This document shows, in pieces, positions 7,146-54,221 of a stretch of DNA of 64,000 bases; position 1 is the first letter of the stretch, and each line of letters opens with the position of its first letter. A model generated the notes under the pieces. That model worked only from the letters and a program-made list of their open reading frames with translations. It was not told the origin of the DNA and did not search any database. The stretch lies in IMG/VR virus record IMGVR_UViG_3300021256_000075, positions 1 through 64,000 of that record; one strand, given 5' to 3'. The DNA comes from a virus (taxonomy: Duplodnaviria; Heunggongvirae; Uroviricota; Caudoviricetes). The position numbers and the translations under genes are program-made.

Positions 7146-7420
7146 TAAACTGGGACGTACGGTGGAAAAACAAAACCTTCTGGATTACGATAATTCCAGC
7201 GATTATTCTGCTGGTGCAGGCTGTAGCTGGGCTTTTCGGCTTTGAACTGGAGCTCTCTGAGCTGCAGGAAAAGCTCCTGGTGGTTGTTAACGCCGTCTTT
7301 GGAGTCCTCGTGATTCTGGGTGTTGTGGTGGATCCGACTACGCACGGCGTAAACGACAGCGTACGGGCGCTTGGATACAAAGAACCCTGGAAAGATGACG
7401 ATGTTCAGGATGCAAAGTAA
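7142..7420 (+). CDS. holin, phi LC3 family
   Basis: Two TM helices and C-terminal VVDPTTHGVNDS motif characteristic of the phi LC3 holin family; ATGA overlap with upstream gene. Confidence 0.65.
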   Translation: MINWDVRWKNKTFWITIIPAIILLVQAVAGLFGFELELSELQEKLLVVVNAVFGVLVILGVVVDPTTHGVNDSVRALGYKEPWKDDDVQDAK

Positions 7421-7474
7421 GATTGACCTTTTCTGCACCTGACAGAAAACTATATGCAGACAGGAGTTGTGAAA

Positions 7475-7750
7475 ATGGAAGAGAAAGAGATCCAGATTTC
7501 GTACATCGTTCATGAGTCAGAAGTAGCCAGGCTGGAACGGGTCATCCGAAGGCTGTGGATTCTCTGCATCATCATATTCGTTGCATTGATCGCAACAAAC
7601 GCAGCCTGGATCTGGTACGAGTCCAGGTACATTGATGAAGTTGTGACCGAAACATACACGGCCGATACAGATGGAGGCGGGACGGCAATCGCAAACGGAG
7701 AAGGAAGTGTTGTGATCAATGGCGACAGCAACGAGAACAAAAGTAACTAA
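7475..7750 (+). CDS. cassette protein 1: small single-TM protein
   Basis: RBS aggag 7 nt before ATG 7475; homolog of 52555-52830 (HESEVARLER...LWILCIIIF...VVTETYTA). Confidence 0.45.
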   Translation: MEEKEIQISYIVHESEVARLERVIRRLWILCIIIFVALIATNAAWIWYESRYIDEVVTETYTADTDGGGTAIANGEGSVVINGDSNENKSN

Positions 7751-7936
7751 GACCAGAATCCTGAAGGGCGGTAAAAATACAAGAAAGTGCAATATATGCC
7801 ATGGTAGAGGTTATATTGTCACGAAGAAGTAGATGAAAAAATATCGCCACAAGGACAGCGGGTTGCAAACCGTTTCTTACATTCCTATGCATGTAAGATT
7901 ACTTGTGGCGATTTTGTAAGCATAGGAGAAATAATT

Positions 7937-8800
7937 ATGGGAACAAAGAATTCTCACAAATACAAAGATATTGATTTGACAGGGAAAAGACACGAAAGAT
8001 TAACGGTCATATCAAAATCAAAGAATGGAAGAAGCAGGTATATTTGCAAATGTGACTGTGGTAACGTAATAGAATTGCCTGCTCATAGATTTTTTGATTA
8101 TAAGTCATGTGGATGTCTCGAAAAAGAAAACAAAACACAGCTCACCAAATACACACGAACTCACGGAATGACGGAGACGAAACTGTACAAAACATGGTGT
8201 GGGATAAAGGCAAGGTGTAACAATCCAAACACACCTCACTATGAGCGATATGGCGGAAGAGGAATTTCAGTATGTGACGAATGGATGAATTCATTTGAAG
8301 ATTTCAGAGACTGGGCATTTTCTGCCGGGTATCAGGAAAACGATTCATGCAAAAAACTTAGTATAGACAGAATCAATCCGAACGGGAACTACGAGCCTTC
8401 GAATTGCAGGTGGATAACAACAAAAGAGCAGTCACGCAATAGAGAAAACTCACGTTATATTTCCGTAAATAACGAAATGATACCATTGGAACAATTTGCA
8501 GAAGAAGAAAAAATACCTGGTTATTTTATCAGACGTAGACTTGAAAAAGGTCAATCATCAGACGAAATAATCCATGACTGGAAAATGTTGCACGAAACCC
8601 CGCAGGGTTACATGGACATTCGGGATGCAATGAAATATTACAATGTATGTTATGTAACAATTTTAAAGTGGATAAAATCAGGTTTGCTTAAAGCCGAAAG
8701 ATACGGCCAGAAATGGTACATACCAAATGGCCAATCGGTGAAAAACGAGAGTGAAGGAAGAGACACATATGGGAGATTCATCAAAGGACATAATCACTAA
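7937..8800 (+). CDS. AP2/HNH-related DNA-binding protein with C-terminal HTH (homing-endonuclease-like insertion)
   Basis: Motifs GKRHERLTVI...CKCDCG, YERYGGRGISVCDEW, IDRINPNGNYEPSNCRWIT; absent from the second cassette copy; AT-rich. Confidence 0.45.
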   Translation: MGTKNSHKYKDIDLTGKRHERLTVISKSKNGRSRYICKCDCGNVIELPAHRFFDYKSCGCLEKENKTQLTKYTRTHGMTETKLYKTWCGIKARCNNPNTPHYERYGGRGISVCDEWMNSFEDFRDWAFSAGYQENDSCKKLSIDRINPNGNYEPSNCRWITTKEQSRNRENSRYISVNNEMIPLEQFAEEEKIPGYFIRRRLEKGQSSDEIIHDWKMLHETPQGYMDIRDAMKYYNVCYVTILKWIKSGLLKAERYGQKWYIPNGQSVKNESEGRDTYGRFIKGHNH

Positions 8801-8824
8801 AATATTTGCAAGGCGGATCAGAAA

Positions 8825-9040
8825 GTGAAACCGGAAGAGCTGAACCTTTCTGTCGCAGATCTGTCTTCGCTGATTGACCAGTGGATCTTCAGTTCAAGAG
8901 ATCGGGCAATCCTGAAGAGGAGATACTGTGACGGAATCACCTATGCGAGGATCGCAGAGGAGTTCGACATGAGCGACAGGCAGATCGTACGGATCTGCTA
9001 TAAACAGTTTGAAAGAGTTATTCAGCACGCAGAAAAGTGA
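8825..9040 (+). CDS. cassette protein 2: sigma-70 region-4-only protein (putative transcription regulator)
   Basis: RDRAILKRRYCDGITYARIAEEFDMSDRQIVRI matches sigma-70 region 4.2 HTH; GTG start; homolog 52903-53118. Confidence 0.45.
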   Translation: MKPEELNLSVADLSSLIDQWIFSSRDRAILKRRYCDGITYARIAEEFDMSDRQIVRICYKQFERVIQHAEK

Positions 9041-9046
9041 ATGACA

Positions 9047-9095
9047 AAGAGGTCTTGCAGGATGCGAAAAGTCCTGTGAGACCTCTTTTTTTCGT
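9047..9095 (+). terminator. rho-independent terminator
   Basis: agaggtct...agacctct stem followed by T7. Confidence 0.5.
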
Positions 9096-9119
9096 TCTGC
9101 AATTTTTTTTAAAAACCTA

Positions 9120-9148
9120 TTGACACAATACGTTAATAGGGTTATAAT
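9120..9148 (+). promoter_or_regulatory. strong sigma-70 promoter (moron)
   Basis: TTGACA-17-TATAAT; near-identical copy at 9702-9730 with a similar leader. Confidence 0.55.
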
Positions 9149-9196
9149 GTGCACATAAGGTCAAGCGAACGAAACGACACACAGGAGGGCGCAAAA

Positions 9197-9427
9197 ATGA
9201 AGATGTATCAGATCGTAGAACAGGGCAGAGGACTCAACGAGTCCTATATGCTCGGCTTTGACAGCGATGCCGAACTTGGCAGATATCTCCACGGCAAGGA
9301 GGCAATGTCTGAGATAAAGAACTACTCCATCGTAGCCTGGAGCGTCCGCGATGACGGCGCCGGCTATGTGGATGTTGAAAGGTACTGGAGATGGAATGCA
9401 ATCCACAAAGCCATGGGGATTGCATGA
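9197..9427 (+). CDS. hypothetical moron protein (76 aa)
   Basis: RBS acaggaggg; own promoter and downstream terminator-less spacer. Confidence 0.4.
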   Translation: MKMYQIVEQGRGLNESYMLGFDSDAELGRYLHGKEAMSEIKNYSIVAWSVRDDGAGYVDVERYWRWNAIHKAMGIA

Positions 9428-9496
9428 CCCGTCTGAATCAGACAGGCCGAGCCTGAGCGGCTAATCTCCGGCAGAAAGAAGGAGAACGTGGATACA

Positions 9497-9661
9497 ATGA
9501 AAAAATGGTACGCAACAGTAACGCGGGAGGACGGCACCCAGTTCGAGATTGGCGGATATTCTGAAAAAGAAATCCAGAAGGATTTGAGAGACATCCACAG
9601 GACAGGTTTTGCTGATCTGGACAAGGCAAGCGTGGAAGTGTACAGCATCAGCATATTCTAA
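9497..9661 (+). CDS. hypothetical small protein (54 aa)
   Basis: RBS aaggagaacg; ATG 9497; not in ORF track (<60 aa). Confidence 0.3.
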   Translation: MKKWYATVTREDGTQFEIGGYSEKEIQKDLRDIHRTGFADLDKASVEVYSISIF

Positions 9662-9701
9662 TCCGGCCAAAAAGAAATTTCAGAAATTTTAAAATTCCAT
9701 G

Positions 9702-9730
9702 TTGACATAATACGCCAACAGGGTTATAAT
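9702..9730 (+). promoter_or_regulatory. strong sigma-70 promoter (moron)
   Basis: TTGACA-17-TATAAT, paralog of 9120-9148. Confidence 0.55.
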
Positions 9731-9779
9731 ACAACCATCGAACGACAAACCAACCTAACCACGACAGGAGGCACAAACC

Positions 9780-10211
9780 ATGAAGAACATCAATCTCTCC
9801 GCCGTTTACGGCATGGACGTTACCCACGAGCAGCTGACCACTGCTGGATTCCGGAAGGTGGATGAACGCGGCGGCTCATACGTCACGGTCACGTACTACA
9901 ATCCGGAAACGGATGAGGGTGGCAGCCTCCTGGCTCGTGACTATGAGTACAGCAACTGCTCCCGTGACAATGACTCCATCTATAACGCCAGTATAGATGA
10001 GAGAGTCCGCAGGAACTGGATGCACCAAAACGGCTGCATCTTTGTCGGAGACACCGTGGTTGTGGTCAAGGGCCGGAAGGTTCCGAAAGGAACATTCCAC
10101 ACGGTCATCCGGATCAAGGAGATCCATGACCGCTTCGGCCGGTGGCAGGCTGACTACCTCATCTTCGATGATGGTCTGGCAACGAACATCACGAACTGCG
10201 TTCTTGCCTGA
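9780..10211 (+). CDS. hypothetical moron protein (143 aa)
   Basis: RBS acaggagg; followed by terminator 10212-10250. Confidence 0.45.
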   Translation: MKNINLSAVYGMDVTHEQLTTAGFRKVDERGGSYVTVTYYNPETDEGGSLLARDYEYSNCSRDNDSIYNASIDERVRRNWMHQNGCIFVGDTVVVVKGRKVPKGTFHTVIRIKEIHDRFGRWQADYLIFDDGLATNITNCVLA

Positions 10212-10250
10212 TACAGTGAAAAGCTCCCCTGAAGGGGGGCTTTTTTTTTA
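10212..10250 (+). terminator. rho-independent terminator
   Basis: gctcccctgaaggggggc hairpin plus T9. Confidence 0.5.
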
Positions 10251-10356
10251 TGTCCTTAAAACCGCACAGGAGCCCGGAAAAAGTGTCTCCCGGATGTCAT
10301 AAAAGCTTCTTCCTGGTGACATTTTGATGGACTGCCTCCAAAACTATACTTTCCCC

Positions 10357-10587
10357 ATGAGTACGACAGATATTGATGACATCATGGCTGCCCTGCGCAA
10401 CCAGGGAGTGTCACGTGAATTTTGCGAACAGATCCGCAGGAATGCGGATGCCGGTGCACTGGATTATGCACTGAATCTGATACGGGGAGAAGAAGATGGG
10501 TGTTTGGCTGGACGTAAATGTCAATCCGCTCGGGAGGAGAGTGGGAGACTGCGCTGTCAGAGCCATTGCCGTAGCCCTCGATACTGA
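10357..10587 (+). CDS. cassette protein 3: small helical protein (end uncertain, overlaps next gene)
   Basis: DIDDIMAALRNQGVSREFCEQIRRNADAGALDYALNLI is homologous to the 54-aa ORF 53232-53396. Confidence 0.25.
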   Translation: MSTTDIDDIMAALRNQGVSREFCEQIRRNADAGALDYALNLIRGEEDGCLAGRKCQSAREESGRLRCQSHCRSPRY

Positions 10588-10876
10588 CTGGGAAACGGCG
10601 TACTGCCTCCTGGCATCCTGCGGCTATGACACAAAAAACATCATGAATGCCGATGCGGTAATCGGCAAAACGCTCCGGGATCATGGCTTCAAGCGTGCGG
10701 TAATCCCGAACAGCTGTCCGGACTGCTACTCCGCAGAGGAATTCTGCGAGGACCACCCGACCGGCACGTACGTGCTTTTCTTCGGCGGGCATGTAGCTTG
10801 TGTGAAGGATGGGAAGCTGTACGACACCTGGAACAGCAGTTATGAAATCCCGCAGTACTACTGGGAAAAGGAGTGA
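10496..10876 (+). CDS. cassette protein 4: papain-fold Cys-His-Asp enzyme (C39-like peptidase or transglutaminase-like)
   Basis: Ordered motifs GDCAVRAIAVAL (Cys), GGHVACV (His), DTWNSS (Asp/Asn); homolog 53368-53754. Confidence 0.45.
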   Translation: MGVWLDVNVNPLGRRVGDCAVRAIAVALDTDWETAYCLLASCGYDTKNIMNADAVIGKTLRDHGFKRAVIPNSCPDCYSAEEFCEDHPTGTYVLFFGGHVACVKDGKLYDTWNSSYEIPQYYWEKE

Positions 10877-10881
10877 AGTGA

Positions 10882-11349
10882 ATGGCCCTGTTTAACAATG
10901 GATTTCCGACAAGCTACCCCCAGATGTATCCGCAGCAGTATCCGCAGACCTACCAGCAGATGCAGGGAATTCAGCAGCCACAGAGTCCCGTGCAGAACTC
11001 CGGGCTGATCTGGATTCAGGGTCTTCAGGCAGCGAAATCCTTCCTGATAGCACCGAATACTACGGTTCCGCTTTTTGACTCGGAGGCACAGTGCATCTAC
11101 CTGAAATCATCCGATGCCAGCGGAATGCCCTCGCTGAAAATCCTCGATTACACGATACGCGATCAGACGCAGGGAAACGGCGTTTTAAGCACTCCCGGAA
11201 AAACGGAAGAGAATCCACCCAAGTACGTCACAAAAGCCGAATATGAGGCACTCCAGGCCGAATTTGATGACCTTAAAGCAAAGTTCGAAAGTTTCACGTC
11301 TAAGCGACCGATTAAGCCGATGAAAAAGGAGGAGCTTGCAAATGAATGA
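10882..11349 (+). CDS. cassette protein 5: Q/P/Y-rich N-terminus protein
   Basis: YPQMYPQQYPQTYQQMQGIQQPQSP then conserved IWIQGLQAAKSFLIAPNTTVPLFDSEAQCIYLKS; homolog 53757-54221. Confidence 0.5.
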   Translation: MALFNNGFPTSYPQMYPQQYPQTYQQMQGIQQPQSPVQNSGLIWIQGLQAAKSFLIAPNTTVPLFDSEAQCIYLKSSDASGMPSLKILDYTIRDQTQGNGVLSTPGKTEENPPKYVTKAEYEALQAEFDDLKAKFESFTSKRPIKPMKKEELANE

Positions 11350-11545
11350 ACTGTACAAGCAGATCCAGCCGAATCAGAACCCGACAGAAGGATTCATTCA
11401 GCGGTTTCAGCAGTTCCGTCAGGGCATAAAAGGAGATCCGAAGGAACAGATTCAGGCTCTCATGAATTCTGGGAGGGTCTCCCAGGCACAGTACAACAAC
11501 GCCTACCAGATGGCCAGCCAGCTCATAAGGATGTTCGGCAAATAA
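11336..11545 (+). CDS. cassette protein 6: small Q-rich helical protein (69 aa)
   Basis: Homolog 54211-54426 (QRFQQFRQ...AQYNNAYQMA). Confidence 0.4.
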   Translation: MQMNELYKQIQPNQNPTEGFIQRFQQFRQGIKGDPKEQIQALMNSGRVSQAQYNNAYQMASQLIRMFGK

Positions 11546-11596
11546 AAAAGTCAGTCCGTAGACTGACTAATCTGCGACCGCATTTGCCGCAACCAC
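11543..11596 (-). ncRNA. antisense mini transcription unit 3 (about 50-nt RNA)
   Basis: Minus-strand promoter TTGATC-17-TATAAT (11603-11631), then hairpin gtcagtc/gactgac and T6. Confidence 0.35.
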
Positions 11597-11632
11597 ATAA
11601 CCATTATAGCGGATGTATGACTCCGGATCAAC

Positions 11633-11689
11633 AAAAAAAAGGCCAGCAAAGCTGACCTTTGGGGGAAATCCGTGACATTGCCGCGCAGC
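11633..11689 (-). ncRNA. antisense mini transcription unit 2 (about 55-nt RNA)
   Basis: Minus-strand promoter TTGACA-17-TAGAAT (11696-11724), then hairpin ggtcagc/gctggcc and T8. Confidence 0.35.
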
Positions 11690-11725
11690 AAAGACATTCT
11701 ACCAAAACAAAGGGTTCCTGTCAAC

Positions 11726-11787
11726 AAAAAACCACCCGGCGGGTACCGGGTGGAAAATGAAAGGAAATCCATGAAGCAGTACAGATC
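11726..11787 (-). ncRNA. antisense mini transcription unit 1 (about 60-nt RNA)
   Basis: Minus-strand promoter TTGACA-17-TATACT (plus coords 11794-11822), then hairpin ccacccgg/ccgggtgg and T7. Confidence 0.35.
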
Positions 11788-11882
11788 AAATTGAGTATAC
11801 ACATCAGACAGAAAAATGTCAAGCTTACAAATTCCGGCGCGCAGGAATTTTGTAATAAATCACAAGTAAAGGAGAAAACGAA

Positions 11883-12806
11883 ATGGCTCTTACTGATGAA
11901 GCAAACGGAATGGGAACGACTATGCTTGTGCAGCCTTCCAACTACAACGGGAACGGCGGAGACGGATTCTTCGGTGCCAATGGCATTTGGTTTCTGATCC
12001 TCTTCATCCTGCTTGGAGGCTGGGGGAACGGCTTCGGCGGAGGCTTTGGAAACGGCTACGGTGCCAATGCAATGGCCGATATGTACCCGTGGTTTAATCA
12101 GTCCAATCAGATCAACGGTGGTTTCCGCGACCAGATGATCAGCGGGAAGATCGATGCGATCAACAACAACCTTGTTTCCGGATTTGGTGACGTGCAGCTC
12201 GGAATTGCCGGCATCAACCAGAACATCTGTCAGACCGGCAACGGAATCGTGTCGGCGGTGACGGGTGCGCAGAATGCCCTGACATCCCAGATGTATGCCA
12301 ATCAGATCGCTGATATGGAACGGTCCTTCGCCGCCCAGACAGCTCAGACAGCCGGCATGACCGCTCTTCAGGCGCAGCTGGCGCAGTGCTGCTGCGACAA
12401 TCGCGCCGCAACGGCCGACCTGAAATACACGGTAGCAACCGAGAACTGTGCGGACCGGACTGCGGCTGCCCAGAACACCCGTGACATTATCGATGCGCAG
12501 ACCAGGGGAACCCAGGCAATTCTGGACAAACTGTGCGCTCTTGAGCTGGATGGCGTGAAGAACCAGCTGGCACAGGCACAGCGTGAGAATGTCGGGCTCC
12601 AGAATCAGCTGAACATGGCGAACCTTTCCGCTTCCCAGGCGGCTCAGACTGCGGCGTTCCAGCAGGGAATGAACAACGAGGTGGATGCCTTGTATAACCG
12701 TCTCAAAAATTGCCCGGTCCCCAGTCAGCCGGTATATGGCAATCAGCCGATTTTCACATGCGGCGGTAACAGCGGCTGCGGCTGCGGCTGCGGCGCGATG
12801 GCGTAA
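11883..12806 (+). CDS. cassette protein 7: Gly-rich membrane protein with Cys-rich C-terminus ending CGCGCG
   Basis: N-terminal GIWFLILFILLGGWGNGFGGGFGNGYG TM/Gly-rich; QCCCDN, C-terminal TCGGNSGCGCGCGAMA encoded by (GCTGCG)n; homolog 54488-55411. Confidence 0.55.
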   Translation: MALTDEANGMGTTMLVQPSNYNGNGGDGFFGANGIWFLILFILLGGWGNGFGGGFGNGYGANAMADMYPWFNQSNQINGGFRDQMISGKIDAINNNLVSGFGDVQLGIAGINQNICQTGNGIVSAVTGAQNALTSQMYANQIADMERSFAAQTAQTAGMTALQAQLAQCCCDNRAATADLKYTVATENCADRTAAAQNTRDIIDAQTRGTQAILDKLCALELDGVKNQLAQAQRENVGLQNQLNMANLSASQAAQTAAFQQGMNNEVDALYNRLKNCPVPSQPVYGNQPIFTCGGNSGCGCGCGAMA

Positions 12807-12818
12807 GAGGTGAGAGAC

Positions 12819-13274
12819 ATGGCAGAGTTTGTGCAGAACGAGATCCAGCTTGTACAGCCGAATCAGAACGTTTTACTACAGTCCTCCATTCCGTGCAACA
12901 GAGGGTATGTCTATCACCGGAATGGATCCGGAATCCTAACTCTCCGTGGCGTTGTAAACGGTGCGTGCGGATGCTTCGCACGCTATCAGGTCACCTTCAA
13001 TGGAAACATCGCCGTTCCGGAAGATGGAACAGTCGGACCGATTGCCATTGCGCTGGCACTGGATGGTGAACCCATTCAGACCAGCCGGGCAATCGTAACG
13101 CCTGCGGCAGTCGATGAGTACTTCAACGTCACATCCACGGCAATCATCACGATCCCGAGAGGATGCTGCGAGAACCTGTCCGTGGAAAATGTGTCGTTCG
13201 GCGCGACTGCAGCAGATGCACCGACAGCCATCAATGTCCAGAACGCCAACCTGACCGTATCGAGAATAGCCTGA
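12819..13274 (+). CDS. cassette protein 8: Cys-containing beta-rich protein (152 aa)
   Basis: NGACGCFARY...PRGCCENLS; homolog 55424-55888; ATG 12819 with RBS agaggtgagag. Confidence 0.5.
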   Translation: MAEFVQNEIQLVQPNQNVLLQSSIPCNRGYVYHRNGSGILTLRGVVNGACGCFARYQVTFNGNIAVPEDGTVGPIAIALALDGEPIQTSRAIVTPAAVDEYFNVTSTAIITIPRGCCENLSVENVSFGATAADAPTAINVQNANLTVSRIA

Positions 13275-13290
13275 GAAAGGAGAGAAGGAA

Positions 13291-13701
13291 ATGGATAAAG
13301 TCAAAGAACTCACAACGATGTGCGAGACGTTGTTTAAAGAGATCGCTGACATGAATAAGAAGATTGAGAACGCCAACGGCAAAATGTCTGCCGGTGACCT
13401 GGAAGCGATCCAGAAGCTGATGCATTCCGTGAAGTCTGCGAAAACCTCCCTGGCGATGATCGAAGCCGAGGAAGGATCCTCGAATGATGACGGCACTAAG
13501 TACAACAGCAACCGCAGCCGCCGGATGAGTTACGGGATGCCGTACTATGGGTATATGCCTTCCTACGGATACCGTCCGGAGATGGGATATTCCAGGCATG
13601 GAGATTTTGTGGATGATCTGCAGGAAGTCATGATGGATGCTCCCAACGACAATGTGCGCAGAGAGATCCAGAAGCTGATTGATAAGGTATCGATGATGTG
13701 A
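13291..13701 (+). CDS. cassette protein 9: N-terminal coiled coil plus Gly/Tyr-rich low-complexity region
   Basis: YGMPYYGYMPSYGYRPEMGY; homolog 55906-56355 with a longer G/Y/N tract. Confidence 0.5.
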   Translation: MDKVKELTTMCETLFKEIADMNKKIENANGKMSAGDLEAIQKLMHSVKSAKTSLAMIEAEEGSSNDDGTKYNSNRSRRMSYGMPYYGYMPSYGYRPEMGYSRHGDFVDDLQEVMMDAPNDNVRREIQKLIDKVSMM

Positions 13702-13707
13702 TGTTAA

Positions 13708-13745
13708 AGAGGGTTGCCTTGAGGGGCAATCCTCTTTTTTGCATA
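13708..13745 (+). terminator. rho-independent terminator ending cassette 1
   Basis: gagggttgcc/ggcaatcctc stem plus T6. Confidence 0.5.
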
Positions 13746-13933
13746 AAAAAAGATCCGGTCATGCCTGAACCGGATCAACTTTGTAAGGAGAATTCCTCAT
13801 GCGGACATGATAGCACTGACAATTCTGAAAGTCAATATGATACGAGAAAAATTATAAAAATACAGTTGACGATTATATTATAATGGTGTATCATTGATGC
13901 ATCGGCACATCCAGGTATTCAACCGGTGCGGAG

Positions 13934-14134
13934 GTGAGGAGATTGAAAACGGAAATCGGGAATGGTGACCGATTCTTTATCGGAGGGAAGGAATATGAGA
14001 TTGTGGATCTCCTGAAAGAGAACGTCACCATCCGGCAGGTGAAAACCGGGAGGCTGTTGACGTATGGGACAGAGATGCTAAAGCGGATCCTCCTGGCAAC
14101 CAATTACGGACTGAAAGATGTAGGTGGCCGATAA
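13934..14134 (+). CDS. hypothetical small protein
   Basis: ORF downstream of TTGACG-17-TATCAT promoter at about 13866-13894. Confidence 0.25.
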   Translation: MRRLKTEIGNGDRFFIGGKEYEIVDLLKENVTIRQVKTGRLLTYGTEMLKRILLATNYGLKDVGGR

Positions 14135-14292
14135 TGTCACACAAAAGAGAGGATGGATACGAATGGTCGAGCTGCTCCATCTGTGGACACATGGTATTGT
14201 GTAAAAAATACACCGGAGCTGTACATGGACAATGGTGTCGATATATGTGCTGCGAACTGTGTGAGCAGAAAAGAGCGTTTATTTTTTCGTGA
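14134..14292 (+). CDS. small Cys-rich (zinc-ribbon-like) protein, 52 aa
   Basis: CSICGH...CRYMCCELC; not in ORF track (<60 aa). Confidence 0.3.
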   Translation: MSHKREDGYEWSSCSICGHMVLCKKYTGAVHGQWCRYMCCELCEQKRAFIFS

Positions 14293-17887: not shown

Positions 17888-18194
17888 AAAATACTTTTAT
17901 TTCATCACGGTGTTTCAAAAGCTCCCATCTGATGCGATTCATTTCGACATCGGAAACAGGCGCTGTTGGGGGTTTTTCTGCGATAAAGAGACGGCTGTAA
18001 AGGCGGTATGCGAGAATTGGACAGACTTGTCCGAGTATCTGTACAACTTTGCGGTAGTAGAAGAATACCGTGAAGGATTAATCGGATGGACCGGAAACAG
18101 ATGGTTCTTCAGATTCGATGCAAAGAAGAAAAGATTTTTTGCCATTGATGAACCTGTTGCATTTAGACATGTCGGAGCATTTTCTATCGGATGA
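17880..18194 (+). CDS. hypothetical protein
   Basis: ATG 17880 (MDEKYFYF) with RBS aagggggagag. Confidence 0.35.
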   Translation: MDEKYFYFITVFQKLPSDAIHFDIGNRRCWGFFCDKETAVKAVCENWTDLSEYLYNFAVVEEYREGLIGWTGNRWFFRFDAKKKRFFAIDEPVAFRHVGAFSIG

Positions 18195-18226
18195 GAGGTA
18201 CAGAAGCGGATAAAAGGTGAAATGGA

Positions 18227-18523
18227 ATGAATAATCTGGAGAAAGTGATTAAAGGGCTTGTAAGCTGTAACTCAGCTTCGTGTCAAAAATGCCCTTATAA
18301 CGAAAAAAAGGAATGCAATGACAGAGGATTCTTTTATTCACAGGCAATTGAAGATGCAATTCAACTGCTGAAAGAGCAAGAACCAAAAGCTGTGTTGCAC
18401 ATTAATGATGGGTATTATTGTCCACGGTGCTCTACTATTGCTACCAGAACTATGGGTGTACAAGAAATACGTCTAGGAACAAAATATTGCCCATATTGTG
18501 GTCAGGCGGTGAAGTGGGAATGA
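18227..18523 (+). CDS. zinc-ribbon protein
   Basis: CxxC...CPRC...CPYCG pairs. Confidence 0.4.
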   Translation: MNNLEKVIKGLVSCNSASCQKCPYNEKKECNDRGFFYSQAIEDAIQLLKEQEPKAVLHINDGYYCPRCSTIATRTMGVQEIRLGTKYCPYCGQAVKWE

Positions 18524-18613
18524 CAGCTTTAATTATCTCAATTATTGCACTTATTTTGTCTATTGTTGGAGCTATTATTAACTCAAGGCGGTGAAAATGT
18601 AGTTAGCGAAACA

Positions 18614-24592: not shown

Positions 24593-24667
24593 AGTGGATT
24601 AGCCAAGAGGTAAGGCATGGGACTTTGAATCCTGTATCCGTAGGTTCGAATCCTACATCCACCGCCA
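24593..24667 (+). tRNA. tRNA-Gln (anticodon UUG), CCA encoded
   Basis: Manual cloverleaf: acceptor agtggat/atccacc with A1:C72 mismatch, U8, D-arm with A14/GG, anticodon loop CUUUGAA, T-arm gtagg-TTCGAAT-cctac, G73, CCA. Confidence 0.5.
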
Positions 24668-45639: not shown

Positions 45640-46446
45640 ATGATAAAAATTGAGTACAACATCCGGCAAGCGCATGTCATTGCAAACGAAATTGTAACGA
45701 ATAAATCCGTTGGCATCGAAGCGCAATTTCAGTTTTCTTCTGACTGGGACGGGCTTTCCAAAATTGTTGAGTTCAAAGGCTCTGGAAACACTGTGGACGT
45801 TGCGTTGCTTGAAGGCAATGAATGTGTTATTCCGCATGAAGTGCTTACCGAGTACGGCGGTGAATTGAAGATCGGTGCATATGGCGTGAACACTGCCGGA
45901 GATGTTGTAATTCCTACTGTTTGGGCAGTGATCGGAATCATCCGGCAAGGCACAATCCCGGAAAGCGAGACTGAGCCAGTACCTACGCAGTCCGTGATTG
46001 ATCAAATCTTAACAACTGCCGGAAACGCGTACACAATGGCATCGGATGCACTCACAAAAGTTGATACTGTTGTAGATGAATCGCTTGAAGCTATTTCAGA
46101 AGCGAAAAATGACGCGCTGAACGCTATTTCTGACGCGACTGAGGATTTATATCAAGCGCGTGATGAAGCTGTTCAAGCGGCAGAAACAGCGGTAAATGCC
46201 AAGACTGATACAGAGGATGCTCTTGCAGATGCAACGGAGCTTATTCAGACGGAAACGGCTGAATCTGCAAAGAATGCTGACAAGGCTGAGACTTATTACT
46301 ATCTCTCAAGGATGCAAGCCGCTACAGGTGGTTTCCTACATCTTGTAAATAAAAACGGACGAATTTACTGCATCCGAACTGGCAATTGTGGTTTGGACAT
46401 GAAGATGGAGAACGGGAGGTTATTCTATGGCTACACCGAGCAGTGA
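45640..46446 (+). CDS. tail/baseplate protein (BppU-like N-domain plus coiled coil)
   Basis: N-terminal pattern similar to 927-1955. Confidence 0.4.
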   Translation: MIKIEYNIRQAHVIANEIVTNKSVGIEAQFQFSSDWDGLSKIVEFKGSGNTVDVALLEGNECVIPHEVLTEYGGELKIGAYGVNTAGDVVIPTVWAVIGIIRQGTIPESETEPVPTQSVIDQILTTAGNAYTMASDALTKVDTVVDESLEAISEAKNDALNAISDATEDLYQARDEAVQAAETAVNAKTDTEDALADATELIQTETAESAKNADKAETYYYLSRMQAATGGFLHLVNKNGRIYCIRTGNCGLDMKMENGRLFYGYTEQ

Positions 46447-49444
46447 GTACAGTGCCATTGTTGAGCAGATTTATGCTGATATGCAAGCAAAGGGCTACAA
46501 TGGCACAATGGCAGACTTGGCACTTGCTCTGAGCACTCTCAACGATGACAATCCGGCTACGACAAAATGGATTGATCTTGGTGCAAGCTCTGCTTATGCC
46601 ATTTATGTGGAACACGGTGGTACAATGTCGGAGGCAGAGTGGATTGAGTACCTTTCCACCGTTTCTGAAAAGTCTGCGCAGGCGCATACTGATGCACAGA
46701 GCGCCAAGGAATCTGCGGAAGCGGCAGAACAGGCAAAAACCGATGTAACGGAAGAAGCCGAACAGGCTATTACCAACATTCAAACTGAAGGGCAAACGCA
46801 AATTACTGCCGTGACCAACAAAGGTACTGAGCAAGTCGGAGCAGTTAACACGGCAGGAACTACACAAGTAAATGCCGTGAATGCCGCAGGGACAACGCAA
46901 GTCACTGCTGTGAATACTGCCGGAAGTACACAGGTAACGGCGATTCAAGCGCAAGGAACAACTTCCAAAGATGCTGTAACTGCTGAAGGCGAAAAACAGA
47001 TAGAACGTGTATCGAATCAAGGTACTGCGGAAGTGCAAGCTGTAAGCGGAGAAGGCACGAGGCAAACTGGCCTTGTAACTACTGAGGGAACAAGGCAAGT
47101 AGGACTTGTTACCACCGAGGGTACAACTCAAGTCACTGCCGTAGAGACAAGAGGGCAGGAGATCATTGATTCTCTTCCCGAAGATTATACCGAAATCCAA
47201 ACCGAGGTTGCTAGTTTAAAAAGCGCAATCATTCAGAATAATGATATGCAAGATGCTTCGCTCTGGTCATATGGACTTCTGAATGTAACAAACGGTAGTG
47301 TTGACAGTACAAACCATACAAAAATTGCTTCTGATTGGATTCGTGTTAGTAAAGGCAGTACATTGTCAGTTGATAGCGGTTACAAGTTTTCCTGCATTAT
47401 CAATAAACAGCCAATTGAAGCCGCATCATATAGGCTTGAAAACAGGTCAATGGGTACAGGGGCATTTACTGCTAATAATGATGGATATATTCGTGTGTGT
47501 TTGAGCTTGGTGTCTAATGAGGAAACGGATATATCTATCAGGACGTACCTTAAAGCTAATATTATTCAAAACAAAGTAAGCGAAAATGCCTTAGATATCG
47601 GTATCGTAGATGATAAAATAGACGATGTTCAAAATGGATTGATTAATTCCCAGAATGGAGAATTGTATTTTGAAAAGATTTTAGACTCTTATGTAGCAAC
47701 AACAGGTGTTATTACAGACTTCACAGGTTGGGAAAGAACAGACTACATTCCTGTTTCTAATATTGCTTCAATTACCGTCACAAAAACAACAGCATCAGTC
47801 TATAATGTGTTCTTTGATAGTAGTAAAGTTAAAGTTTCAAGTTTCAACACACCTATAGGCACAAAAAATATTGCAGTTCCGAGCAATGCCGCTTATGTGA
47901 TTTTAAGTGATACAAAAGCAGGTATGGAAAGTACGGTTATCACTTTTACATCCAAAAAAGAAAACGAGATTAACAATATCAGTAAATCTGTTGTAGTTAT
48001 CAATCCATATTTGCAAGAAAGATACAGTGGCGATGTTATAGAAGGTGAAAATCTTGTACCAAACGGAATATTTTTCAGATTCGATGCGATAGAAGTAAAC
48101 ACTAACACGGGGATTTATACTTCAGATTGGGCAAATTTCTTATCTGACCTATCAGAATCTTTTGGTGCAAGCAATCCTGTTAACGCACCTGTTGTATCTT
48201 ACGACTACACAACAAATTGTGCGAGAATGAGCAGGACATACAGTATCGTATTTAATACCGCTACTGATAAATTTGAGTTAGTTAGAACTCTTTATACATA
48301 CTCAAATACTCAGGTAATAATTGTCGGTGTAGATAATTCTAATGTTCCGTTCGGGGCATTATATGAACAGGCAAAGCTTTCAGAAAAACGCGGACTTAAA
48401 TGCTACAGAGATAAGTTTCTGGAAATAGAAGAAACGGCATTAACAGGAAACCATGATTTTATGTTTACGTTCGCAACTGATTGCCATTTCCCGTCTGATG
48501 ATGAAAAAACGTATTACAACCCAACAAACGAAGTAATAAAAGCTATTAATGATAACTTTCATGTCGATGCAATTATTAACGGTGGTGACTCTGATATTTA
48601 CGGCAGTAAAAAGAGAACTTATGCTCTTGGATGTTACGACCATATTTTCAAAAACTTACCGCAAGATAAAGTTATATATTGCATGGGCAACCACGATTGG
48701 AACGGCGTAAGTGGCATTAGCTATCAGCAAGATGAAGATTGGATGCTTGATAACAGCATGACTAATACACTATTTATGCGGCACAATACAGATGCTGTTT
48801 TCCCCACTTCAGCTACCGATGATGTTAAGTATTTTTACAGAGATTTCACTGACAAGAAAATCCGTGTAATAGTATTGAATACATCCGATGTCGATGTGTC
48901 GTTCACAGATGGAATTGTAGACATTGACCCATTAGCCGCACTTGGAGTTAGACAGGCACAAATTAATTGGTTGACAGGAACAGCATTGAATGTGCCAGAT
49001 GACGATTGGCACATCATCATAATTATGCACGTCGGTCTGTACATAAGAGCAGAAGGTTTTCCAGATAACAATGCACTGATTAATCGTGAATCTATTCAAG
49101 CAATTCTTTCAGCATATGTTAACAAAACTACTTACACATATTCGGAGACAGACAGTACATATAACGGATACTTTGATATTAGCGGCTCTGGCTCATTTGA
49201 AAACTATCATGGTACACTAATCGGTGTATTTAGTGGGCACGCACATACTGATGGGTATTGCGATGATGATGGATTCAACGCTATTCAGACAGAGTGTTCC
49301 TACCTTGACTATAATCAGAAGCCACAAAGAATAGTGCGAACAATTGATGAAGTTGCAGTTGATTGCGTTGCTATTAATAAGACAGCTAAGACTATTACAA
49401 TTAAGCGATTTGGTTATGGTGATAGCCGCAATTATACTTACTGA
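46427..49444 (+). CDS. large fiber-like protein with 11-aa repeat stalk and C-terminal calcineurin-like metallophosphoesterase domain
   Basis: Repeats xGTxQVxAVNT; phosphoesterase motifs GGDSDIYG, GNHDWN, GHAHTD; AT-rich C-terminal half. Confidence 0.5.
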   Translation: MATPSSEYSAIVEQIYADMQAKGYNGTMADLALALSTLNDDNPATTKWIDLGASSAYAIYVEHGGTMSEAEWIEYLSTVSEKSAQAHTDAQSAKESAEAAEQAKTDVTEEAEQAITNIQTEGQTQITAVTNKGTEQVGAVNTAGTTQVNAVNAAGTTQVTAVNTAGSTQVTAIQAQGTTSKDAVTAEGEKQIERVSNQGTAEVQAVSGEGTRQTGLVTTEGTRQVGLVTTEGTTQVTAVETRGQEIIDSLPEDYTEIQTEVASLKSAIIQNNDMQDASLWSYGLLNVTNGSVDSTNHTKIASDWIRVSKGSTLSVDSGYKFSCIINKQPIEAASYRLENRSMGTGAFTANNDGYIRVCLSLVSNEETDISIRTYLKANIIQNKVSENALDIGIVDDKIDDVQNGLINSQNGELYFEKILDSYVATTGVITDFTGWERTDYIPVSNIASITVTKTTASVYNVFFDSSKVKVSSFNTPIGTKNIAVPSNAAYVILSDTKAGMESTVITFTSKKENEINNISKSVVVINPYLQERYSGDVIEGENLVPNGIFFRFDAIEVNTNTGIYTSDWANFLSDLSESFGASNPVNAPVVSYDYTTNCARMSRTYSIVFNTATDKFELVRTLYTYSNTQVIIVGVDNSNVPFGALYEQAKLSEKRGLKCYRDKFLEIEETALTGNHDFMFTFATDCHFPSDDEKTYYNPTNEVIKAINDNFHVDAIINGGDSDIYGSKKRTYALGCYDHIFKNLPQDKVIYCMGNHDWNGVSGISYQQDEDWMLDNSMTNTLFMRHNTDAVFPTSATDDVKYFYRDFTDKKIRVIVLNTSDVDVSFTDGIVDIDPLAALGVRQAQINWLTGTALNVPDDDWHIIIIMHVGLYIRAEGFPDNNALINRESIQAILSAYVNKTTYTYSETDSTYNGYFDISGSGSFENYHGTLIGVFSGHAHTDGYCDDDGFNAIQTECSYLDYNQKPQRIVRTIDEVAVDCVAINKTAKTITIKRFGYGDSRNYTY

Positions 49445-49469
49445 GCAATTTTGCACTTTAAAATAGTCA

Positions 49470-49505
49470 TAACTGCACATTGTGACTATCTTTATCTTTT
49501 TTGAC
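49470..49505 (+). terminator. rho-independent terminator
   Basis: atagtca...tgactat hairpin plus T-run. Confidence 0.4.
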
Positions 49506-49522
49506 GTTTTAAAAATAGCTCT

Positions 49523-49551
49523 TTACATGGTGATTAGAGGGTGATATAATA
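49523..49551 (+). promoter_or_regulatory. sigma-70 promoter
   Basis: TTTACA-17-TATAAT. Confidence 0.5.
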
Positions 49552-49571
49552 CCGTCCAAGGAGGTGGTATT

Positions 49572-49940
49572 ATGTCCCCGAAATCACCAGAGAATACAGA
49601 ACGTATCAATGTATTTTTCTCCAAGAAAGCACTGGAAGCACTGAAAGAAGAAGCGCTTGAACGAGGCATTGCCGTTTCTGCGCTTATCCGAATGATTGTG
49701 CTAGAATGGCTTAAAAAGTTTGAAGCGCGAGAAATGACAATGGATGAGTGGCGTAAATGGAAGGCAGACGCAAAACGCGACCCGATCTGTATGGTATATG
49801 AGAACGATGATTGCCCGATATGGGTAATGAATCCTAACGCTGTTCATGAACCTGCGCTGTTAATGGGTAAAATTAAATTGTTCGTTAACAAACCGACCCA
49901 TGAGCAATGCAGGGCGATAAAGTGGAACACTACTTTTTAA
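49572..49940 (+). CDS. ribbon-helix-helix (CopG/Arc-like) DNA-binding protein
   Basis: N-terminal RINVFFSKKALEALKEEALERGIAVSALIRMIV. Confidence 0.4.
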   Translation: MSPKSPENTERINVFFSKKALEALKEEALERGIAVSALIRMIVLEWLKKFEAREMTMDEWRKWKADAKRDPICMVYENDDCPIWVMNPNAVHEPALLMGKIKLFVNKPTHEQCRAIKWNTTF

Positions 49941-49955
49941 GATGTAAGCTTTTGA

Positions 49956-50126
49956 GGTGGTTTCATGAGTGATTTGATTCATAAAACAACCGCTGAAACT
50001 ATGGATAAGGCAGAAATTGCCGTTAGTGGAAATTGCGTAGTATGCGGGAAGCAACTTAATTGTAGGCGATTGCTTGTTTGCAGAGATTGTGAATCAAAAC
50101 GATCAGAAAAAATAGATGGTAGGTGC
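49956..50126 (+). CDS. small Cys-rich protein, partial duplicate of the next gene's central region
   Basis: VSGNCVVCGKQLN...C..C shared with 50123-50548 (about 75-bp direct repeat). Confidence 0.25.
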
Positions 50127-50548
50127 ATTCCATGACAAACGGTGAAATACTTAAAAAGTTCAAGGCACAGTACCCACAAATGGAAATCAGCGACTTCCGT
50201 CCTGCTTGCATTCCTTCCGATGGGCAATGCATAACAATATGGCTTAAAAACGGAGATGCGATAATATACTTTCCGAAGCCAGATAAAACAGAAGTTGTAG
50301 TTAGTGGAAATTGCGTAGTATGTGGGAAGCAACTTAACTATGGGCGTTTGTTCGTTTGCAAGGAATGTGAACCTTGCATGGATTTTGTTTCACGATACGC
50401 AAAAGCAGAAACCTTTAAGGAAAAAGCAAAATGTTTTATTGCAAAAGTGCTACATGCCCATGTCATTACTCCGCTTGGAAGAATCATGCTGTTACCAAAG
50501 GATTATAACAGACTTGCTATAGCAACTGGAAATGAAGATATGATTTAA
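50123..50548 (+). CDS. hypothetical Cys-containing protein
   Basis: ORF. Confidence 0.35.
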   Translation: MHSMTNGEILKKFKAQYPQMEISDFRPACIPSDGQCITIWLKNGDAIIYFPKPDKTEVVVSGNCVVCGKQLNYGRLFVCKECEPCMDFVSRYAKAETFKEKAKCFIAKVLHAHVITPLGRIMLLPKDYNRLAIATGNEDMI

Positions 50549-50692
50549 ATAACCCTTATGTGAGGCAATCTGATGGAATGGATTATTTTTGAATGGGTAT
50601 TCATTACAATTGGTATACTATTTGCGCTATGGCTTAACAAGCAGATTAAATAATCCTTTAAAGGAGCATTAAAAACAGGAGGATTGCAATAA

Positions 50693-51115
50693 GTGGGCGT
50701 TACAATCAGAGGACGGTACTTAGGAAGCCCATCGTATGACATGGGATATTTAACATTTTTCAAACTTAGATCGGATATTGCGCATACCGTATCAGAAGAA
50801 TATGGGGCACATTATGACGAAATGCCGAAAGCGTGTGCAAAAATCATTGATGTAAAGGCATATGATAGAAGGACGGAATGCTTGATTAAAAAATTCCATT
50901 GCAAGGAGAGGTTTCTTTCGTTTCTTTATCAGCCGGACGCAGAAGGAAAATTGTCTCCATTCCAGTGTAAAGCATTACTCAATCAAATTGAAAGTATGGA
51001 TAGCAAACGGTTATATGGTTATATGGCTTATCCGAAGGATTGCATGAGCATCGGCCAATTTAGAGCACTACTGCGGGAGTGCTTTGATCGAAAAGTATAT
51101 TTGGAGTGGAAGTAA
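50693..51115 (+). CDS. hypothetical protein
   Basis: GTG start after RBS aacaggagg. Confidence 0.35.
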   Translation: MGVTIRGRYLGSPSYDMGYLTFFKLRSDIAHTVSEEYGAHYDEMPKACAKIIDVKAYDRRTECLIKKFHCKERFLSFLYQPDAEGKLSPFQCKALLNQIESMDSKRLYGYMAYPKDCMSIGQFRALLRECFDRKVYLEWK

Positions 51116-51175
51116 AATAGGAGATGAAGAAAATAGGACGCATTAATATAGTCGAAGATAAGGCGGCGAAAATCA

Positions 51176-51493
51176 ATGATTGATAAACTGTATTATGACC
51201 ACTTTACCGAATCATGTGTTTTTGAAAAGGATGAAATTGCACCACCAGAACGTTATACCTTGTTTTTCCGTGGGACTGGCGAATCGTATATTGAATCTTG
51301 GTACGTTGATCATGAACGGAGCAAATGCTTGAACATAGCGTTTAATGCAGATGAGTACAACGACCCTTTGTTCCGTCAGGGAGTTATAACGCGCAGATGT
51401 GAAGAAAACAGATGTGAACTTGTAGGGCTTAGGTATATCGTGATTCCGGGTGAAAAGTTTGATGAGATTTGCGAATCACTTTATGGAGCGTAA
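51176..51493 (+). CDS. hypothetical protein
   Basis: ORF. Confidence 0.35.
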   Translation: MIDKLYYDHFTESCVFEKDEIAPPERYTLFFRGTGESYIESWYVDHERSKCLNIAFNADEYNDPLFRQGVITRRCEENRCELVGLRYIVIPGEKFDEICESLYGA

Positions 51494-51513
51494 CAAAAAT
51501 AGGAGTTTAATAG

Positions 51514-51741
51514 ATGGTAGAAGATATGTATATCCGTGCGATTGCGAAGGAAAGCACAAGTATTCCTGAAAAGCAGAAGCAACGCATTCGAGAGCGTTTC
51601 ACCAAGAAACAATTACTGTTTGAGAATCAAAGATACTATTGTCCTTATTGCAAAATGCCAACGCCGAAAATATCAAAATATTGTTGTAATTGTGGGCAAA
51701 AGGTCACACTGGATAAGCCTGCTATGGTGGTTCTTGATTGA
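51514..51741 (+). CDS. zinc-ribbon small protein
   Basis: CPYCKMP...CCNCG. Confidence 0.35.
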   Translation: MVEDMYIRAIAKESTSIPEKQKQRIRERFTKKQLLFENQRYYCPYCKMPTPKISKYCCNCGQKVTLDKPAMVVLD

Positions 51742-51800
51742 TTAAATAGGAGGATGCGTGTTGTAAAGATGCCCGGATTTTTTTTCTGGGGTGGAAGCAT

Positions 51801-51847
51801 ACCGGGCCTTCAACCCGGAGGAGTCAGTTCGAGTCTGACCGCATCCC
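51801..51847 (+). other. tRNA 3'-half-like fragment (anticodon arm + T-arm + acceptor 3' strand); possible att core
   Basis: ccggg-ccttcaa-cccgg, variable agga, gtcag-TTCGAGT-ctgac, cgcatcc; no matching 5' half found. Confidence 0.3.
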
Positions 51848-52157
51848 TGTTTCGGTAAAAATGCTATGAAGAAAATGATTTTTAACACTTTGGTTTTCTT
51901 AAGACGGCGCACGTGGAAATTCCTAATTACCACAAACCATCCGCCTTTTATCGGTTGGTTAGTGAACAAAATTGATGATATTTTGCTTGATTTGATAGAA
52001 TATGCAGAAGAAAAACTGTATCCCAACGGGCATGACAATTTAGATGAATTTTGATCAAGTTGAGCATTTCAACCCCGAAATACTCAACTTGGCTTTTAAA
52101 AAGGCTTAAAAATTGCTGTTTTCAGAAACAAGATGCGTTTTAAAAGAGGTTTGTTGT

Positions 52158-52310
52158 ATGGCACTGGACAAAGCAATCGCACATGGCAAAGAGCATAGAA
52201 AAGCCTATCGAGGAACGAAAGCTGTTGACCACTCCTGCCGGAATCATGGCGGTTGTTCGTATTGCGAGGAAAACAGAAAGCACAAGTTCCGAGACAAGCA
52301 TCCCGCATAA
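52158..52310 (+). CDS. small Cys/His-rich protein
   Basis: HSCRNHGGCSYCEENRKH. Confidence 0.3.
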   Translation: MALDKAIAHGKEHRKAYRGTKAVDHSCRNHGGCSYCEENRKHKFRDKHPA

Positions 52311-52349
52311 AAAGATGCACAAGTGAAGGAAATGCTGTAATATTAAGTT

Positions 52350-52382
52350 GCAAGTTAGTAGCAAGTTAGTAGCAAGTTGCAA
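52350..52382 (+). repeat. 3 tandem 11-bp direct repeats (gcaagttagta)
   Basis: Direct reading; followed by hairpin 52417-52448. Confidence 0.5.
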
Positions 52383-52495
52383 AGAATGAAAAACAATCCG
52401 ATTGCAAGTGTAATTCGGGTTTCTTGGCACGGCATACGAGCGATGTCCGTGCCTTGTTTAAAAGAACAAAAACTAAAGAATATTTAAAAAATAAC

Positions 52496-52524
52496 TTGAT
52501 TTAACAATTAGCTTATGTTATAAT
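52496..52524 (+). promoter_or_regulatory. sigma-70 promoter of cassette copy 2
   Basis: TTGATT-17-TATAAT. Confidence 0.5.
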
Positions 52525-52830: not shown

Positions 52831-52902
52831 GGTTAAAAAGGCAAGAAAGCAAAGCAGAAAATGCAATATGTGTCATGGAACGGGATATATTAAGGTGAAG
52901 GC

Positions 52903-53118: not shown

Positions 53119-53231
53119 GTTTTGATAAATGGGTGGCGAAAGCCACCCTTCTTTTTTTATGTCCGAAATTGTCGCAGAAATGTCACTCTGGCGGCATTTT
53201 GACGCGAAGTAGATAAAACTATAATGCGAAT

Positions 53232-53754: not shown

Positions 53755-53756
53755 AA

Positions 53757-54221
53757 ATGGCACTTTATAACAATGGTTTTCCTGCGACTTATCCGCAGAT
53801 GTATCCGGCCTATCCTGCATATCAGCAACCGCAGAACATGCAACAGCCTCAACAAGTGCAGGGACAGAATACCGGAATTATCTGGATTCAAGGAGAACAG
53901 GCGGCAAAATCCTTCTTGATTGCTCCAAATACCACTGTACCTCTTTTCGATACTGAAAGCCAGTGCATCTATCTGAAATCAGCTGATGCAAGCGGGATGC
54001 CATCCTTGAAAATCCTTGATTACACGATACGTGACCAACGGCCGCAGAATAGCCCTGCAAACGTATTGGAGCAAGGTAAGGGGAATAGCAACTACGTCAC
54101 AAAAGCGGAATATGACGATATTGTGCGCGAAATTGGGGCACTTAAAGCGCAAGTAGAAAGCATGTCAGCAAGAAGAGCTACAAGAGCGGCAAAACGGGAG
54201 GAATCAGACGATGAGCAATAA
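53757..54221 (+). CDS. cassette protein 5 (copy 2): Q/P/Y-rich protein
   Basis: YPQMYPAYPAYQQPQNMQQPQQVQGQ. Confidence 0.5.
   Translation: MALYNNGFPATYPQMYPAYPAYQQPQNMQQPQQVQGQNTGIIWIQGEQAAKSFLIAPNTTVPLFDTESQCIYLKSADASGMPSLKILDYTIRDQRPQNSPANVLEQGKGNSNYVTKAEYDDIVREIGALKAQVESMSARRATRAAKREESDDEQ

Follow-up and report, generated by a model that had tools for sequence, protein, structure and literature searches.

C39 peptidases form the N-terminal domain of transporters and carry a Gln of the oxyanion hole some six residues ahead of the catalytic Cys; in ComA the catalytic residues are Cys17, His96 and Asp112. Papain-like proteases of the staphopain/AvrPphB type are secreted or injected and have prodomains or undergo autoprocessing, and in the Tgl/GerQ pair of the Bacillus subtilis spore coat GerQ is cross-linked via its N-terminal lysines. 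Here we compare with these systems a small protein, referred to as the enzyme, that is encoded in a window of 64,000 nucleotides (nt; positions 1 to 64,000 of the tailed-phage record IMGVR_UViG_3300021256_000075), together with the partner protein whose gene directly follows and opens with a Gln/Pro/Tyr-rich tail. Both genes occur twice in the window, as copies A and B. Our leading interpretation, which we hold with somewhat less than even confidence, is that the enzyme is a cytoplasmic, catalytically active cysteine peptidase or isopeptidase with a C39/Josephin-like papain fold, and that it works with the Gln-tail partner, as substrate or adaptor, in phages of Clostridia.

The enzyme belongs to a large, unnamed and phage-specific sequence family within the known papain fold. 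The two copies, which share 54% identity over 106 amino acids (aa) by tblastx and 52% in a protein alignment, carry the motifs GDCAVRA (residues 17-23), GGHVA (97-101) and DTWNSS (110-115) in copy A and GDCSIRA, GNHVA and DSWDSS in copy B. The PHROG 3754 profile spans the full length of both (E=1.5e-30 for residues 7-125 of copy A, E=5.2e-25 for copy B); PHROGs gives the function of the family as unknown, and the few GenBank records that call its members 'putative peptidase' cite no experimental support. We counted 2,188 matches in a 90%-clustered database and 2,614 representatives of 50%-identity clusters (E≤0.001), mostly stand-alone proteins of ~125 aa. The enzyme had no match in Pfam, NCBIfam or PADLOC, scans of all proteins of the surrounding gene module against the same three collections gave nothing significant, and Pfam searches of longer family members revealed no informative additional domains. 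Sequence searches of the PDB with the enzyme, the enzyme-family and partner profiles, and the beta-rich and Gly-rich proteins of the module returned only noise. Our literature searches on phage papain-like, C39-like and Josephin-like proteins yielded no characterization of this family, and the paper on Butyrivibrio phage Ceridwen treats the module region as hypothetical.

The AlphaFold (AF2) model of the enzyme, computed from a 67-sequence alignment, had a mean predicted local distance difference test score (pLDDT) of 95.2 and a predicted template modeling score (pTM) of 0.89. In this model, Cys19 begins a helix (residues 19-27), His99 is just ahead of a strand (100-104) and Asp110 closes another strand (107-110). 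The fold predicted in this way is papain-like, an assignment that we regard as solid and useful for annotation, and Cys19 is the candidate nucleophile of this clan CA-like fold, together with His99 and Asp110. Fold matches included the double-glycine protease LahT150 (score 7.2), staphopain C (7.1), AvrPphB (7.0) and the peptidase domains of PCAT1 and ComA (6.9), as well as bacterial Josephin-like clippases, PeiR, UFSP and ZUFSP. Judged from the model, the closest structural relatives of the enzyme are the C39 double-glycine peptidase domains and the Josephin-type deubiquitinases.

Conservation was counted in 204 enzyme open reading frames (ORFs) from the fetched loci and in 150 representatives of 50%-identity clusters. 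Asp18, Cys19 and Arg22 were found in 203 of the 204 ORFs, and His99, Gly106 and Asp110 in all of them; at the non-gap positions of the cluster representatives, the Cys was kept in 128/134, the His in 116/129 and the Asp in 106/118. Such invariance of Cys19, His99 and Asp110 is the pattern expected from purifying selection on catalysis. A preliminary description of this DNA had located the motif-bearing ORF and its counterpart, the Tyr/Pro/Gln-rich tail that opens the gene directly downstream and the Gly-rich protein that follows, all of which we found as described (Table 1). It had also proposed a papain-like fold with a Cys-His-Asp set and had staked this idea on conservation of the Cys and His across homologs; the model and the counts above bear out both.

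The enzyme is structurally similar to solved C39 domains (LahT150, 6mpz; PCAT1, 7s5j and 8vp3; ComA, 5xe8) and shares with them a Cys at about residue 17-19 at the N-terminus of a helix, a His about 80 residues later and an Asp on the next strand. However, it matched neither Pfam C39 (PF03412) at E≤1 nor any NCBIfam or PDB sequence, and the residue six positions before the Cys is Gly in 153/204 ORFs, not Gln; the conserved polar residues are instead Asn8 (180/204) and Asn10 (181/204). Unlike the C39 domains, it is a stand-alone phage protein of presumed cytoplasmic location, with no hydrophobic segment, transmembrane (TM) segment or signal peptide; no ABC transporter domain was seen among the called genes within ±10 kb of it, and its neighbors have no double-glycine leader. 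Josephin-type deubiquitinases and bacterial 'clippases' (6pgv, 3o65, 9f5t, 9g7g; bioRxiv 10.1101/2024.07.24.604956) likewise match in fold, whereas the sequence identity is 9-13% and the 126 aa of the enzyme compare with 145-234 aa for the matched chains; no sign of a ubiquitin-like substrate was met in these phages or their hosts, although no test aimed at one was made. The chains of the staphopain/AvrPphB-type proteases (8oig, 1x9y, 1ukf) are also longer, at 173-346 aa, and the enzyme has neither a signal peptide nor a prodomain. By sequence, the enzyme classifies as a member of PHROG 3754 and not as a C39, Josephin or transglutaminase protein.

Some variation within the enzyme family was also seen. 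An insert of the form CPDC…C…H at residues 74-87 is frequent and variable, and the Bacillus, GBK2 and fusion lineages described below lack it. A zinc knuckle was considered as a defining feature and rejected: CxxC is present in 176-178 of the 204 ORFs, but ligands 3-4 vary (CCAH 59, CCCH 51, CCCN 37). One cluster representative (P0219) has two tandem enzyme domains, the second without the Cys and His, so degenerate copies exist in the family; another (P0193) is a chimera of the enzyme N-terminal part and a Tyr/Gly/Arg-rich protein.

The partner belongs to PHROG 21718, which is listed as of unknown function and for which we found 252 database matches. It opens with MALFNNGFPTSYPQMYPQQYPQTYQQMQGIQQPQ in copy A and MALYNNGFPATYPQMYPAYPAYQQPQNMQQPQQ in copy B, and in copy A the tail (residues 1-39) is followed by an alpha/beta domain (42-95), a linker, a coiled-coil helix (118-140) and an acidic C-terminus. 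In the AF2 model the tail is disordered (pLDDT <50) and the small alpha/beta domain has a pLDDT of ~90; the partner gave no significant fold match. Among 120 homologues the tails are 24-64 aa long and consist of 27.5% Gln, 15% Pro, 12% Tyr and 9% Asn, and not one of them contains a Lys, Arg, Asp or Glu residue; lysines do occur in the rest of the partner and among the other proteins of the module. The very N-terminus (MA-Y/L-N-N-G-F-P-x-T-Y) is more conserved than the remaining tail. Gly-Gly occurs in only 23/120 tails, and the tail alignment has no conserved Gly-Gly column.

The operon structure of the two genes and their linkage were directly observed in a large number of loci. The partner starts within a few nt of the enzyme stop in 153 loci, typically at -4 to +3 nt (modal values +3, -4 and -1), and the start of the small Gln-rich protein, the third gene, overlaps the partner stop codon in both copies (ATGAATGA in copy A). 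In partner-centered viral loci, the enzyme is directly upstream of the partner in 75/75 and the small Gln-rich protein is found in 73/75. On contigs from bacterial genomes and metagenome-assembled genomes, the enzyme adjoins the partner in all 37 testable loci, once in reversed order; two further loci, cut at a contig edge, fall outside this count. Several of these genomic loci have insertions of 0.6-1.8 kb between the two genes. Where tblastn missed the partner, its slot held a diverged protein of the same architecture, in which a tail of aromatic residues, Gln and Pro is joined to a small domain and a coiled coil. In one locus, L164 (positions 341-1159; JGI 3300037400, Ga0392372_0116558), directly after a holin, the two are fused in frame into a protein of 272 aa that consists of the enzyme, a Gln/Tyr/Pro linker, the partner domain and a coiled coil; the small Gln-rich protein is present in this lineage, and the Gly-rich and beta-rich proteins are absent. 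The full module is carried by Ceridwen, a lytic phage of Butyrivibrio fibrisolvens that grows on B. fibrisolvens DSM 3071.

That the enzyme is catalytically active, that its chemistry is that of a hydrolase rather than a transferase and that it has any action on the partner are our inferences. In phages of Lachnospiraceae and related Clostridia, the enzyme, translationally coupled to the partner and the small Gln-rich protein, would act together with them. If the partner is a substrate, its tail or the conserved N-terminal (Y/F)-N-x-(Y/F)-P motif would be clipped by the enzyme; alternatively, the partner may be an adaptor that positions the enzyme. An enzyme-substrate pair had also been proposed in the preliminary description: the tight linkage agrees with it, and a substrate role is plausible, although the data do not establish it.

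Adjacency within one phage lineage is what shared descent alone would give, and only the fusion and the linkage that survives insertions and reordering exceed this expectation. Several observations weigh against a dedicated pair. The fusion, which alone among the three rearranged enzyme forms (fusion, P0219 and P0193) was traced to a contig, is on a single metagenomic contig of 2.5 kb. The pairwise distances of enzyme and partner are weakly correlated in a mirror-tree comparison (r=0.18), as compared with r=0.42 for the partner and the small Gln-rich protein and r=0.57 for the small Gln-rich and Gly-rich proteins. The enzyme family, with its 2,614 clusters at 50% identity, is far larger than the partner family with its 252 matches. 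The enzymes of Bacillus Tsamsa-like phages (some annotated 'putative peptidase'), Geobacillus phage GBK2, the Lak megaphages of Prevotella, bajarodcaudo virus 2 and a 176-kb gut phage have unrelated neighbors and no Gln-rich tail nearby, so the ancestral target of the enzyme would not have been the partner. A structure search of BFVD returned only uncharacterized phage proteins, and similar small folds are spread through phages of many hosts. Finally, the 120 tails contain no conserved cleavage-type motif such as Gly-Gly, and their lack of lysine counts against a specific pair.

In the main rival explanation, which we consider somewhat less likely, the enzyme is a general phage effector peptidase or isopeptidase directed at a host or other universal target (for example in host takeover, counter-defense or removal of ubiquitin-like conjugates), and the partner, being neither substrate nor adaptor, is only co-transcribed in this phage lineage. 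The stand-alone occurrence of the enzyme among unrelated genes in the distant Bacillus, Geobacillus and Prevotella phages, its structural counterparts in phages of many other hosts and its low co-evolution with the partner all speak for it, as does the GBK2 copy, which lies amid unnamed small genes just upstream of the RecT, SSB and primase genes of recombination and replication. On the other hand, linkage is complete wherever the partner exists, it persists across insertions of up to 1.8 kb and one reordering, and the in-frame fusion joins the two proteins; neither a PADLOC match nor, in the literature searched, a paper on the enzyme family lends this explanation support. A peptidase or isopeptidase that works with the partner is our preferred, if tentative, reading for the Clostridia phages.

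A broader idea, which seems improbable to us, concerns the whole module, taken here as the enzyme, the partner, the small Gln-rich protein, the Gly-rich protein (read as a membrane protein), the beta-rich protein and the Tyr/Gly/Arg-rich protein. Together these might form a protein assembly of phage origin within infected cells, for instance a condensate, a matrix at the membrane or a layer resembling a coat. The uncharged low-complexity regions of the module proteins would be the building material, and the papain-fold enzyme would be a maturation or remodeling enzyme that clips or transamidates the tails. If true, this would represent a novel type of low-complexity assembly, encoded by phages of Gram-positive hosts and controlled by an enzyme.

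The similarity to C39 domains raises the question of whether the enzyme is a C39-type leader peptidase for neighboring module proteins, chiefly the 307-aa Gly-rich protein, whose N-terminus reads MALTDE(N)NGG…. The residue spacing of ComA is close to that of Cys19, His99 and Asp110, and the N-terminus of the Gly-rich protein is conserved as MAL/ITDExNGG. However, the Gly-Gly varies in this protein (EANGMG, ESNGF, SDSSNM), the segment that precedes it is only ~9 aa long, and the enzyme is also present where the Gly-rich protein is absent (L164 and the Bacillus phages). Together with the missing Pfam C39 match, the missing ABC transporter and the Gly in place of Gln described above, this makes a leader peptidase quite improbable. 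The C39-like core that had been suggested from the motifs therefore stands as a structural similarity, and fails as regards sequence match, transporter context and a conserved Gly-Gly in the partner tail.

The other suggestion of the preliminary description was a transglutaminase-like core, by analogy with Tgl and GerQ. Like that pair, the locus combines a Cys-His-Asp enzyme with a candidate partner in which a Gln-rich N-terminal region precedes a folded domain. A transamidase of this kind would join the Gln-rich tails to lysines of module proteins in the assembly of a coat-like layer or matrix, and the Cys-His-Asp set, the 27.5% Gln of the tails and the abundance of low-complexity Gly/Tyr/Gln proteins in the module all fit. 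Nevertheless, we found no match to Pfam Transglut_core and no transglutaminase among the best fold matches, and the suggested core finds support in neither sequence nor fold. The tails differ from GerQ in having no lysine in any of the 120 sequences, the enzyme is widespread in phages without a Gln-rich neighbor, and the context is a phage rather than a spore coat. Butyrivibrio, the host of the cultured phage with the module, does not form spores to our knowledge, so that the spore-coat analogy does not hold either, and we judge transamidation very unlikely. Least credible of all is a non-catalytic papain-fold binding module or pseudoenzyme, for which the degenerate second domain of P0219 would be a precedent, because Cys19, His99 and Asp110 are kept in 203-204 of the 204 ORFs and are near-invariant across divergent representatives.

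The novelty lies in a large phage sequence family placed in a known fold, whose low-complexity partner is unusual and, within one host group, obligately linked to it; as a lead for experiments the pairing is good, and no surprising mechanism has been demonstrated. The enzyme family is among the larger uncharacterized phage families that we have met. It is found in phages of gut and rumen Clostridia, in Tsamsa-like phages of Bacillus and in Lak megaphages, yet neither Pfam nor NCBIfam includes it; its placement in the papain fold with an invariant Cys, His and Asp suggests a testable biochemical function for thousands of hypothetical proteins. In the Clostridia phages, the obligate pairing with a charge-free, prion-like Gln/Pro/Tyr tail protein constitutes a defined two-gene system in which the intracellular role of a phage cysteine peptidase can be addressed. 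A culturable model with the whole module is Ceridwen, grown on B. fibrisolvens DSM 3071.

The window is part of a metagenomic scaffold of 149 kb, and all its sizeable ORFs are phage-like and on the plus strand. The module occurs colinearly in two places, at ~7486-13701 (copy A) and ~52555-56355 (copy B) by tblastx. The GC content drops from ~0.50 to ~0.42 near 18 kb, and an independent 37.5-kb contig with copy A stops ~8.1 kb past the enzyme gene, at the same junction (~18000-18600). The window thus appears to be two related gut/rumen phage genomes joined in one metagenomic scaffold. Because the contig end and the GC shift coincide, copies A and B are orthologous modules of two related phages, and an intragenomic duplication of the module, which we had considered, was rejected on the same two observations.

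Table 1. Positions in the window of the genes of the two module copies
Feature	Position	Strand	Remarks
Enzyme, copy A, 126 aa, stand-alone, predicted papain fold	10496..10876	+	Candidate catalytic Cys19, His99, Asp110
Enzyme, copy B (second phage), 128 aa	53368..53754	+	Orthologue (tblastx, PHROG 3754)
Partner, copy A, 155 aa	10882..11349	+	PHROG 21718; starts 5 nt after enzyme stop
Partner, copy B, 154 aa, Gln/Pro/Tyr tail	53757..54221	+	PHROG 21718, E=4.6e-30; starts 2 nt after enzyme stop
Small Gln-rich helical protein, copy A, 67 aa	11342..11545	+	PHROG 22984; third of the tight triad
Small Gln-rich protein, copy B, 71 aa	54211..54426	+	
Gly-rich protein, copy A, 307 aa	11883..12806	+	PHROG 16490; copy B 54488-55411
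Beta-rich protein, copy A, 151 aa	12819..13274	+	PHROG 20016; copy B 55424-55888 (154 aa)
Protein with helix, Tyr/Gly/Arg/Ser-rich stretch and second helix, copy A, 136 aa	13291..13701	+	Copy B 55885-56355 (156 aa)
Sigma-70 region-4-like/late-activator-like helix-turn-helix (HTH) protein, 71 aa	8825..9040	+	Upstream of the module; copy B 52903-53118
Single-TM protein, 91 aa	7475-7750 / 52555-52830		Before the sigma-like gene, as is the holin

The order of genes in the module is the single-TM protein, the sigma-region-4-like protein, a small ORF, the enzyme, the Gln-tail partner, the small Gln-rich protein, the Gly-rich protein, the beta-rich protein and the protein with a Tyr/Gly/Arg-rich center. 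Lysis genes precede it, with an SH3_3-domain protein (in copy B, an amidase-like protein) followed by the holin. Terminator-like hairpins at 10218-10245 and 13721-13736 flank the part of the copy A module from the enzyme gene to the end. The sigma-like protein was found in 66/83 loci and the Gly-rich protein in 77/83 and 72/75 loci. The latter is rich in Gly, Phe and Asn at its N-terminus, continues with a single hydrophobic helix (GIWFLILFILLGGWG) and a long helical region rich in Ala, Gln and Asn, and ends in a Cys-rich stretch (…CGCGCG); it contains 11 cysteines. The beta-rich protein, which has almost no lysine, is unusually conserved and abundant, with at least 8,000 clusters, the top 120 of which are 82-99% identical; it is 83% identical to its counterpart in Ceridwen, as compared with ~46-56% for the neighboring proteins. 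The center of the last protein is rich in Tyr, Gly, Ser, Arg and Asn, for example GGYNGGNYNGGNSYGYRGGNSYARGRGRN in copy B.

The module is also distinct in its composition. Its GC content is 0.48-0.53 (10496-13701 and 53368-56355), against ~0.42-0.44 in the surroundings (25438-49444), and its Gln codons are nearly all CAG (71/71 in copy A and 55/69 in copy B); the structural genes of phage B use CAA for 48% of Gln. A phage tRNA-Gln at 24593-24667 has the anticodon UUG and is therefore mismatched to the codon preference of the module, and the idea that this tRNA serves the Gln-rich module was rejected.

The two phages differ around the module. Phage B has an insertion of ~7 kb between holin and module (45640-52500) that is absent from phage A and holds a 1005-aa protein of unknown function (46427-49444; PHROG 7158). 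Copy A has an intergenic stretch at 11546-11882 that corresponds to ~60 nt in copy B and contains three tandem units of ~95 nt on the minus strand, in a genome that is otherwise all plus-strand. Each unit comprises a near-consensus sigma-70-like promoter (11/12, 11/12 and 10/12 matching positions), ~35-40 nt and a GC hairpin with a T-run, and the three units are possibly small RNAs; an Rfam scan of 7300-14200 gave no family. Only copy A has an HNH-endonuclease-like gene (287 aa, C-terminal HTH_17) between the TM and sigma-like genes, at 7937-8800. Copy-A-specific ORFs were also seen at 9149-10211, and they are preceded by perfect (12/12) sigma-70-like promoters at 9120-9148 and 9702-9730.

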